A stretch of DNA of 48,601 nt from positions 1 through 48,601 of the forward strand of contig JAZOSM010000009.1 of the NCBI GenBank assembly GCA_045657125.1, read 5' to 3'. This document shows, piece after piece, positions 24,858 through 25,626 of this stretch (its first letter is position 1; each line of letters begins with the position of its first letter). Both the position numbers and the translations under genes were made by a program. This DNA comes from Eubacteriales bacterium (GTDB lineage Bacteria; Bacillota; Clostridia; Oscillospirales; SIG627). The notes beneath the pieces are model-generated. The model worked only from the letters and a program-made list of their open reading frames with translations, did not search any database and was not told the origin of the DNA.

Positions 24858-25478
24858 ATGATATTCGGTTACGTGAGGGTGTCCAGTATGGATCAGAATG
24901 AAGAACGGCAGTTGGCATCTATGAGGGAAAAGCAGATCCCGTGGCAGAACGTTTTTATAGATAAGCAGTCGGGCAAGGATTTTGAGAGACCGCAGTACAA
25001 AAAAATGGTAGAAAAAATGCGGGCGGGAGATTTACTATACGTACATAGCATCGACCGACTGGGGCGCAATTACGAGGAAATTCAGAGACAATGGCGGATT
25101 TTAACCAAGGAGATCGGCATCGACGTATGCGTGATGGATATGCCGCTGTTGGATACCAGAAACGGCAAGGATCTGATGGGAACTTTTATTGCGGATCTTG
25201 TTTTGCAGATTCTCTCTTTCGTGGCGCAAAGCGAACGGGAAAATATCAAAAAAAGGCAGGCAGAGGGAATCGCCGCCGCCAAAGCGCGAGGGGTAAAATT
25301 CGGCAGACCGGAAACTCCGTTCCCGGAGGATTTCGGCAGGATCGTGCAGCTGTGGGAGCAGAAGAAAATTTCTCTTGCGGAGGTACAGAGGCGTTGCAAC
25401 GTCAGCGAAGCTACTTTTTACCGCCGCTTGCGGGAATATCGACTGGCAGAACAACAAAAAAAAGCTGTCAAAAAGTAA
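24858..25478 (+). CDS. Small serine recombinase (resolvase/invertase family, Hin/Gin-like)
   Basis: [18 protein letters not shown] contains the catalytic Ser motif. Also DRLGRN, the E-helix region [26 protein letters not shown], and a C-terminal HTH ([21 protein letters not shown]). 206 aa; AAGGAGG RBS. Confidence 0.9.
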
Positions 25479-25490
25479 ACCTTTTGACAG
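25465..25490. repeat. hix-like 26-bp recombination site, left (overlaps the recombinase stop codon)
   Basis: CTGTCAAAAAGT-AA-ACCTTTTGACAG: two 12-bp half-sites around a 2-bp core. Core AA (25477-25478) is the last two bases of the TAA stop. Confidence 0.8.
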
Positions 25491-25614
25491 CAAAAACATT
25501 TTAACATTCATATAGAAAAAAAGCAAGGATTTCCATGAAAAACAACAAATATTATACATAATTACCAAGTATTAATTTCATATTTCAAAGAAAGAAACGA
25601 TTGTCAAAAGGTTT
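25477..25614. promoter_or_regulatory. Putative invertible DNA segment (inverton) between the two crossover cores
   Basis: A 134-bp AT-rich segment bounded by inverted hix-like sites. It lies next to a serine recombinase and ~100 nt upstream of the ATG at 25718. It contains a perfect TATAAT on the minus strand (25556 to 25551). Confidence 0.6.
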
Positions 25615-25626
25615 ACTTTTTGATAA
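25601..25626. repeat. hix-like 26-bp recombination site, right (inverted relative to the left site)
   Basis: TTGTCAAAAGGT-TT-ACTTTTTGATAA. Positions 25602-25623 are the exact reverse complement of 25468-25489 (22/22). Confidence 0.8.

Follow-up and report, generated by a model that had tools for sequence, protein, structure and literature searches.

A candidate promoter inverton with two bare crossover sites beside a small serine recombinase gene in Clostridia

Paired crossover sites and the family of related loci

A 134-bp segment between a gene for a small serine recombinase and a gene for a giant (1436-aa), adhesin-like secreted protein raises the question of whether the segment is an invertible ON/OFF switch for its neighbour, and what kind of enzyme would invert it. 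The segment lies in a 48,601-nt stretch of contig JAZOSM010000009.1 (hereafter the window) from a member of the Eubacteriales, and it is bracketed by two 26-bp sites, L and R (Table 1). An original prediction, made from the letters of the DNA, had described the locus as a Hin/Gin-type inverton. Its statements on sites, inverted repeat, genes and the overlap of stop codon and core hold to the base, including the observation that the last two bases (25477-25478) of the TAA stop of the recombinase gene (25476-25478) form the core AA of site L. The locus is probably a self-contained phase-variation cassette in which the segment is inverted to turn the secreted-protein gene on and off, and at the level of the family described below this reading is well supported. 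Inversion is favoured because the cores of paired sites covary, promoter positions are mirrored between loci and one relative was found in both orientations.

Both sites are near-palindromes of 12-2-12 geometry, placed in inverted orientation. The reverse complement of L matches R at 23 of 26 positions and is exact over 22 nt (25468-25489 vs 25602-25623). A repeat search of the window recovered the same L/R inverted repeat and also reported site L as a palindrome in its own right. The sites are centred on GT-NN-AC, which in the window reads ..AAAGT-AA-ACCTT... When a degenerate 22-mer was used with up to 3 mismatches, no third occurrence was found in the 48.6 kb window; the number expected by chance was 0.00 (100 dinucleotide-preserving shuffles). 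A looser 18-position scan of the window returned sites L and R only, the 22-mer had no match in viral contigs, and an Rfam search over 24700-25900 yielded nothing near any threshold. Inversion between the cores would create the predicted junctions GCTGTCAAAAAGTAAACCTTTTGACAATCGTTTC (also given as GCTGTCAAAAAGTAAACCTTTTGACAATCGTTTCTTTC) on the left and AATGTTTTTGCTGTCAAAAGGTTTACTTTTTGATAAATATCC on the right.

Conservation in the four closest relatives (L001, L002, L107 and L108; recombinases 89-90% identical to that of the window) was counted as support for selection on the sites, which appear near-invariant while the interior diverges. Both 26-mers are unchanged in L001 and L002, both 20-nt site windows are unchanged in L108, and L107 has a single mismatch in site L. 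Divergence among close relatives is far greater in the DNA between the sites than within them.

Related loci were collected by exact-protein look-ups, by a metagenome scan for the 22-mer and by a scan of GTDB representative genomes with recombinase alignment. At least 599 stretches were matched by the last scan and 80 of them retained; a minority of the matched stretches was examined for sites. All kept loci stem from Clostridia-type metagenome-assembled genomes (MAGs) or isolates. The recombinase itself has relatives in 8,000 database protein clusters at E ≤ 1e-20, most of them 75-78% identical and about 204 aa long.

Site pairs were scanned with the pattern TCAAAARGT-NN-ACYTTTTGA, the two central bases being ignored in scoring. 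Exactly two sites were found directly after the recombinase stop, or overlapping it, in 52 loci (about 44 non-redundant). The central dinucleotides of the paired sites are reverse-complementary in all 52 and fall into six pair types (GT/AC, 27 loci; AC/GT, 11; AA/TT, 10; AG/CT, 2; CT/AG, 1; TT/AA, 1). Serine recombinases leave overhangs of 2 nt, and inversion by such an enzyme requires covariation of this kind. A looser search added 13 loci with diverged half-sites (TGCAAAAGT, CGGAAAGGT, CAGGAAGGT and others) that keep the GT-NN-AC centre, the complementary cores and a spacing of 113-229 bp. Recombinases with no more than 60-77% identity, from dozens of genera, are accompanied by the same site sequence. 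The adjacent recombinase is, as originally proposed, the likely enzyme of sites L and R.

Centre-to-centre distances fall into the classes 115, 124-127, 135-139, 146-148, 154-156, 166-169, 177 and 188 bp. Their periodicity (R = 0.75 at 10.2 bp) was matched by none of 5,000 random sets; kinship of the loci inflates this statistic somewhat, yet eight separate classes are occupied nonetheless. The original prediction had called so short a segment unusual, a remark that does not apply to this family, in which a length of 113-188 bp is the norm. Longer segments of 360-383 bp were seen in L012 (1117-1496), L017 (987-1368) and L091 (3625-4027; segment N-masked).

Most loci have a plus-strand open reading frame (ORF) that begins 16-113 nt past site 2 and has a Shine-Dalgarno sequence. 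The family's cargo is diverse and includes BspA leucine-rich repeat (LRR) proteins, a lipase, AMP-binding/NRPS proteins, kinases, TIR, Band-7, GtrII and MBOAT proteins. In L109 (1-2261, 3327-5639) the recombinase gene is flanked on one side by an AbiEi/AbiEii pair and a gene for a Cap4-type nuclease and on the other by a Band-7/zinc-ribbon gene, after which comes a TPR-TIR gene; the setting resembles a defence island, and an inverton there would gate the downstream genes.

Several further arrangements were observed. Site pairs with complementary cores occur in L013 (2118-2277; 136 bp) and L018 (260-418; 135 bp), where the DNA examined contains no family recombinase gene; they may represent orphan invertons on which a recombinase encoded elsewhere acts. 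The asymmetry of the half-sites in L013 is direct while the cores are inverted, such that core orientation alone is conserved. Two family recombinase genes lie side by side in L079 (580-1158, plus strand, and 1383-1961, minus strand; inverted) and in L032 (3001-3558 and 3738-4316; tandem). The recombinase frame of L016 contains an internal stop, and both its sites are intact. Among GenBank phages, DNA similarity gave two weak matches to the recombinase gene only, and the P0032 element of the family had no match in PLSDB plasmids.

Inversion in a relative and the predicted state of the switch

Inversion was seen in the P0077 element, whose recombinase is 77% identical to that of the window and which has a MobA/MobL relaxase gene on one side and a Lipase_3 gene on the other. 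The element was recovered from five samples, with L115, L116, L117 and L119 in one orientation and L118 (SRR15744753) in the other. Over 1,815 bp, L115 and L118 differ by 109 mismatches, all between the sites; when positions 1855-2011 of L115 were inverted in silico, mismatches to L118 fell from 109 to 0. As judged from the assembled contigs, natural inversion between the cores is thereby shown for this relative. Together with the complementary cores in the 52 loci it bears out the original claim that such sites are genuinely inverted crossover sites. The promoter-like motif of L118 (TTGTAA-17-TATAAT) faces the lipase gene.

Weaker support for inversion comes from contig ends at site 1. In L110 (SRR14637455) the contig stops precisely at the last base that the two orientations of site 1 have in common. 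With only 18 nt, the inverted repeat shared there is shorter than the Logan assembly word, which we take to be a 31-mer, and should thus not suffice by itself to interrupt the assembly graph. The L026 contig stops at the corresponding inner boundary of its site 1, and that of L120 within site 1.

Promoter and terminator calls rest on consensus predictions throughout. In the window, where inverted repeats flank a short segment beside an invertase gene, the internal promoter predicted by consensus (TTGCTT-17-TGtTAAAAT; score 9.5) faces the cargo in one orientation only. It lies 20 nt from a site centre, the same position class as in L001, and is at present directed at site L and the 3' end of the recombinase gene. 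The hairpin that such a transcript would meet has -16.4 kcal/mol and is followed by U8 in the OFF configuration, vs -8.3 kcal/mol and no U-run in the ON configuration. Because the predicted promoter points away from the cargo gene and into the hairpin plus U8, the layout indicates that the switch is currently OFF for the 1436-aa gene, a point on which the original prediction was silent, and site L appears to double as the OFF-state terminator. A candidate inward promoter on the plus strand, built on TTGACA in the inner half of site L, was rejected, as it has no usable -10 in the window; in the family it scores only by mirroring the minus-strand -10 and reusing the recombinase site.

The segment ends of each related locus were read outwards for promoters (n = 43). 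The family promoter thus described is sigma-70-type, TTGaaa/TTGCaa-17-(TGn)TAtAAT, 19-31 nt from a site centre. It was called at the recombinase end only in 31 loci, at the cargo end only in five, at both ends in none and at neither in seven. The weak cargo-end call of L047 is probably false by alignment with L036, and L056, under the score threshold, probably carries its promoter at the cargo end. Loci L003-L005, with 79% identical recombinases, have TTGCTT-17-TAAAAT at the same distance as the window but at the opposite end, facing secreted-protein genes. L003 is the closest diverged relative of the window, shares the synteny of its phage head genes and has the promoter at the opposite end. 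Global alignment of the inner segments of window and L003 gave the reverse complement only a modest advantage (21.5 vs 11); in local alignments reverse complement vs direct scored 32 vs 20 for L001 and L003, and 31 vs 20 for L047 and L056. Hairpins behave alike across the family, with a mean of -16.0 kcal/mol in the OFF and -9.6 in the ON configuration (Wilcoxon p ~1e-6). At least six T in the eight positions past the hairpin were present in 24 of 35 loci for OFF and in five of 35 for ON (Wilcoxon p ~1e-5). Covariation, mirrored promoters and the relative in both orientations speak for the original proposal of a promoter-bearing ON/OFF switch.

The following mechanism is proposed. Dimers of the Sin/β-like recombinase would bind the two bare crossover sites (cores AA and TT, 136 bp apart), which would synapse across a short, helically phased DNA loop; we infer by analogy with Sin and β that an HU-type bending protein probably helps synapsis. 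Cutting at the 2-bp cores, subunit rotation and religation would invert the 134-bp segment, the asymmetric and mutually complementary cores permitting inversion and forbidding deletion. When OFF, the minus-strand promoter would read into the site L hairpin and U8, the transcript, with a predicted start near 25491, would end after about 40 nt and the 1436-aa gene would be left without an evident promoter. When ON, the inverted promoter would stand beside site R with its weaker hairpin and no U-run, and transcription would enter the 1436-aa gene.

Several points weigh against this reading. Promoter and terminator of the window are consensus predictions only, and the -35 hexamer TTGCTT is weak (3/6). 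A weak plus-strand promoter-like match (9/12) is present in the current orientation at 25535-25562, a stretch that differs in L001; given this match and the weak -35, OFF may be leaky. The recombinase gene lacks an evident promoter of its own, and a promoter scan found no plus-strand promoter-like site between the hairpin upstream of the gene (Table 1) and its ATG. Wild-type Sin and β need accessory site II plus HU for activation, and scans of 44 loci detected no recurrent accessory half-sites, either inside the pair or in the 150 bp around it; a Sin-type accessory site II in the family was dropped as a candidate after these half-site scans. Finally, a single orientation was found in P0032 (6/6), P0019 (6/6) and P0048 (10/10), the four closest relatives share the window's orientation, and the window organism is represented by one assembly in one orientation, so that flipping here is unobserved. 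In consensus assemblies the OFF layout strongly predominates.

Affinities of the recombinase and alternative explanations

The recombinase matches the Pfam family Resolvase (PF00239; 2.6e-28), with a weak C-terminal HTH_7/HTH_23 match, and PHROG 125 'DNA invertase' at 1e-52. An exact look-up in public assemblies found it on this contig only. Among proteins of known structure, Sin/Bin3 ranked first (2e-33), followed by γδ resolvase (1.5e-19) and Gin (2e-13). Identity amounts to 54% with a resolvase-like protein of a Priestia plasmid, 51% with one of an Enterococcus plasmid, 39% with a staphylococcal Sin-like protein and 39% with the TnpR resolvase of TnAs1; with Mu Gin it is 33% over 151 aa, in the catalytic domain only (69 bits). 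By these comparisons the protein is of a Sin/β/resolvase-like lineage. Membership of the Hin/Gin clade was rejected on the values for Gin (33%) vs the resolvase-like proteins of Bacilli plasmids (51-54%), and the same values, with a site centre of GT-NN-AC rather than the CC-NN-GG of hix/gix, overturn the original 'Hin/Gin-type' label. An assignment to the Mpi-family master invertases was also rejected (NCBIfam NF009949, 49.7 bits vs a cut-off of 272).

A possible precursor is found on the Enterococcus faecalis plasmid NZ_CP092577.1 (L105). One perfect site, TCAAAAAGT-AT-ACTTTTTGA (3352-3371), lies there 140 bp upstream of the gene for WP_001224538.1, the protein that is 51% identical to the window recombinase. 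Its half-sites are those of the inverton family and its core is palindromic instead. This layout, the classic one for a resolvase, is probably the ancestral res-type arrangement, and the window's family looks like a resolvase lineage whose site was duplicated, inverted and moved downstream. The upstream arrangement was seen only in this plasmid relative.

Sin (resH; staphylococcal plasmids, Tn552) and β (six; pSM19035) are Firmicute enzymes that use HU/Hbsu, and their sites share the GT-NN-AC centre: site I reads GT-AT-AC for β and GT-AC-AC for Sin (PMC3985619, Table 1). Sin is the closest solved relative of the window recombinase by sequence (2e-33). β has been classed as a resolvase/invertase (PMC3985619), and the same paper cites work according to which Hbsu is required for β-mediated resolution and inversion. 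The differences are (i) that the substrates of Sin and β are two copies of a site of 86-90 bp, each composed of a crossover site and accessory site II, whereas the window has two bare sites with asymmetric complementary cores, 136 bp apart and without conserved accessory half-sites; (ii) that their site precedes the gene and is used chiefly for resolution, whereas the pair here lies downstream of the gene; and (iii) that the segment here carries a predicted promoter.

In line with these affinities, the two palindromes could alternatively be subsites of one res-type site, a crossover site and an accessory site used for multimer or cointegrate resolution without inversion. The protein is on the resolvase-like side (Sin 2e-33, γδ 1.5e-19), its 51% identical plasmid relative has one site with a palindromic AT core 140 bp upstream, and most assemblies show a single orientation. 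However, both sites of the window are of 12-2-12 geometry, and accessory sites of Tn3, γδ and Sin have other spacings or direct repeats. Non-palindromic complementary cores in 52 of 52 loci and of six types are needed for inversion and not for resolution. The exact core-to-core inversion between L115 and L118, the mirrored promoter positions and the location of the sites at the 3' end of the recombinase gene, directly upstream of the cargo, likewise argue against resolution, and we regard this alternative as improbable.

Marginally less credible is the proposal that the sites are operators at which recombinase dimers form a repression loop over the promoter without strand exchange. Looping predicts the helical phasing of the spacing, and the resolvases of Tn3 and γδ are autorepressors at res. 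Still, repression gives no reason for complementary central dinucleotides and leaves both the mirror-image promoter at either end and the exact inversion in L118 unexplained. Looping and inversion are not exclusive, the inversion synapse being itself a loop.

A true Hin/Gin-type invertasome, dependent on Fis and an enhancer, is very improbable in spite of evident likenesses. As in Hin/hix and Gin/gix, a small serine recombinase is combined with inverted 26-bp sites of 12-2-12 geometry and a non-palindromic 2-bp core (AA/TT, as in hix), and, as with Hin, an outward-facing promoter in the segment would exert ON/OFF control of a surface protein. Some sources name homologues of the recombinase 'Pin-like DNA invertase', in line with the name of PHROG 125. 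The half-site likeness to hix/gix noted originally stands for the outer bases, where TTATCAAAAA resembles TTATCCAAAA of gix (9/12), but not for those that flank the core: gix, read directly from the Mu genome, is TTATCCAAAACC-TC-GGTTTACAGGAA (..AAACC-TC-GGTTT..), with CC/GG where the window has GT/AC. Hin and Gin segments span about 1-4 kb (the Mu G segment about 3.1 kb), as opposed to 134 bp here, and the recombinase gene of the window lies outside the segment with a site at its 3' end. Hin and Gin depend on Fis and an enhancer, whereas no enhancer is known here and the hosts are Clostridia, which to our knowledge lack Fis. The low identity to Gin given above adds to these objections.

That the palindromes are mere terminators or chance hairpins in an AT-rich spacer, as the minus-strand terminator score of site L plus T8 might suggest, can practically be dismissed, as zero chance matches are expected, the site sequence is conserved beside recombinases of 60-77% identity in dozens of genera, site R lacks a U-run, and the core complementarity and the L115/L118 inversion already contradict it; termination is more plausibly an additional function of site L.

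With inversion of the segment as the preferred reading, two further switches invite comparison. Mpi, which acts on the capsular-polysaccharide invertons of Bacteroides fragilis, is a serine recombinase that flips promoter segments of about 200 bp for surface phase variation, and the site pairs of L013 and L018 without an adjacent recombinase gene suggest action in trans, as for Mpi. Protein family, inverted-repeat motif, promoter type and phylum differ, and the enzyme here is usually encoded in cis, as part of a portable cassette. The RecV switches of Clostridioides difficile (cwpV, flg, cmr) comprise 150-200-bp segments upstream of surface and motility genes, and the OFF orientation of cwpV creates an intrinsic terminator. 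RecV is a tyrosine recombinase acting in trans, with the promoter outside the segment; the window by contrast has a serine recombinase gene in cis, a predicted promoter inside and a putative terminator formed by the recombination site itself.

Promoter inversion by serine recombinases is textbook knowledge for Hin and Mpi, and the characterised switches of Clostridia use RecV. The kind of system is known; what varies here is the resolvase-clade enzyme, the bare pair of sites 11-18 turns apart, the site doubling as terminator and the mobile-element cassette. No description of this variant was found. The site motif is absent from the searchable literature and from the searched supplements of the hCom2 inverton catalogue, both of which are absence of evidence only. 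Surveys of invertons in gut communities report unnamed inverted-repeat groups of Clostridia (PMC11892184), which may include this family.

A broader interpretation is offered tentatively, as one that could hold but on balance is slightly more apt to fail: a resolvase-clade recombinase would have been turned into a dedicated invertase that needs neither enhancer nor accessory sites, within a portable cassette of about 0.9 kb that gates arbitrary mobile-element cargo. It would comprise two bare crossover sites spaced by about 11-18 integral helical turns, covarying asymmetric cores and a promoter insulated by a terminator that one of the recombination sites forms. Its carriers would be mobile elements, prophage-like islands and defence islands across Clostridia, and its cargo, under stochastic ON/OFF control, adhesins, lipases, kinases and TIR/Abi-type defence genes. 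Small serine recombinases have recently been reported to mark anti-phage defence loci, in a study that leaves their function open and mentions inversion only as a possibility (PMC13552941). If true, the broader interpretation would give, for this subfamily, a mechanistic reason for that linkage of recombinase and defence genes. The link is suggestive only, because the bait of that study, EF_B0058, belongs to a different lineage and lacks the architecture of the window; EF_B0058 of pTEF2 was rejected as a family member (32% identical, with its own upstream palindrome and at 55 bp from its cargo).

The window locus is one member of a very large family, found on mobile elements of gut Clostridia, in which a resolvase-like enzyme would flip about 115-190 bp with two crossover sites only. 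Such a cassette would be a natural minimal genetic toggle of less than 1 kb with possible use in Gram-positive anaerobes, and a test case for the licensing of small serine recombinases without accessory sites or enhancer, for which the 10.2-bp quantisation of spacing gives a direct, testable prediction. It would also explain how mobile elements of gut Clostridia keep costly cargo, such as adhesins and possibly defence genes, mostly silent yet available. For annotation, a 'recombinase family protein' beside cargo in Clostridia can signal a phase-variable locus, and the orientation in reference assemblies, here mostly OFF, matters when expression is predicted.

Cargo gene, leader and neighbourhood

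Coordinates of the features of the window are compiled in Table 1.

Table 1. Features of the recombinase locus and its surroundings (positions in the window; promoter and terminator entries are predictions).
Feature	Position	Strand	Description
Portal	18973-20616		phage-derived block upstream of recombinase gene
Major head protein	21079-21915		phage-derived block upstream of recombinase gene
Virion structural protein, 567 aa	22333-24036		phage-derived block upstream of recombinase gene
Perfect hairpin with A-run and T-run (bidirectional terminator-like)	24800-24827	.	30 nt before recombinase start codon
Small serine recombinase, 206 aa	24858-25478	+	YVRVSSMDQ catalytic motif, C-terminal HTH; outside the invertible segment
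Terminator-like element	25456-25491	-	site L palindrome, 12-bp stem, -16.4 kcal/mol, then T8 (terminator scan, fold)
Site L (site 1)	25465-25490	.	12-2-12 crossover-type site CTGTCAAAAAGT-AA-ACCTTTTGACAG; core AA at 25477-25478
Invertible segment	25479-25612	.	134 bp between cores; 136 bp centre to centre, ~13 helical turns
Predicted promoter in segment	25498-25526	-	-35 TTGCTT (25526-25521), 17-nt spacer, TG (25506-25505), -10 TAAAAT (25503-25498)
Site R (site 2)	25601-25626	.	TTGTCAAAAGGT-TT-ACTTTTTGATAA; core TT at 25613-25614, reverse complement of site L core
Leader of cargo gene	25627-25717	+	long hairpin, -22.1 kcal/mol, z -2.15; no T-run past site R
Cargo gene, 1436 aa	25718-30028	+	signal-peptide-like N-terminus, Cys-rich repeats, Listeria-Bacteroides repeat, BspA-type LRR, dockerin-like C-terminus
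Intrinsic-terminator-like site	30041-30075	+	closes one-gene cargo unit

The ATG of the cargo gene at 25718 lies 91 nt past site R. Pfam matches of the 1436-aa protein are LRR_5 (2.5e-56) and Flg_new (3e-07), and the protein contains numerous H-x-YDN-x-CD-x-x-CN-x-CG repeats. Near its C-terminus (29840-30025) a duplicated motif, DVDGNEDLNMDDAIHLLFHVNFPESYP / DFDGNGKVDMDDAIYLLFYVNFPESYP, resembles a dockerin, and a cohesin scaffold instead of an LPXTG anchor may accordingly display the protein.

A promoter scan of the leader found no plus-strand match. Among the window, L001 and L002 the leader shows one difference in about 75 nt, vs about 85% identity in the neighbouring DNA. Its hairpin pairs AUCCUCCG with CGGAGGA. 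The leader also holds a mini-ORF of eight codons with a TTG start (25697-25723), the TGA of which overlaps the main ATG. Hairpin and mini-ORF may form a second, post-initiation layer of control.

Downstream of the cargo unit, two giant ORFs at 30622-34683 (1353 aa) and 34810-38352 (1180 aa) matched nothing in Pfam, PHROG or NCBIfam. The left third of the window consists of chromosomal DNA, with genes for M16 peptidases, Lgt and trigger-factor-like proteins. The phage-derived block upstream of the recombinase gene (18973-24798) further includes genes for proteins of 137, 127 and 248 aa, and no terminase or tail genes were recognised in it. Its synteny from head genes to recombinase gene recurs in L003, a locus from another MAG with a 79% identical recombinase. 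The block may be what is left of a prophage, or a small island that forms capsids.

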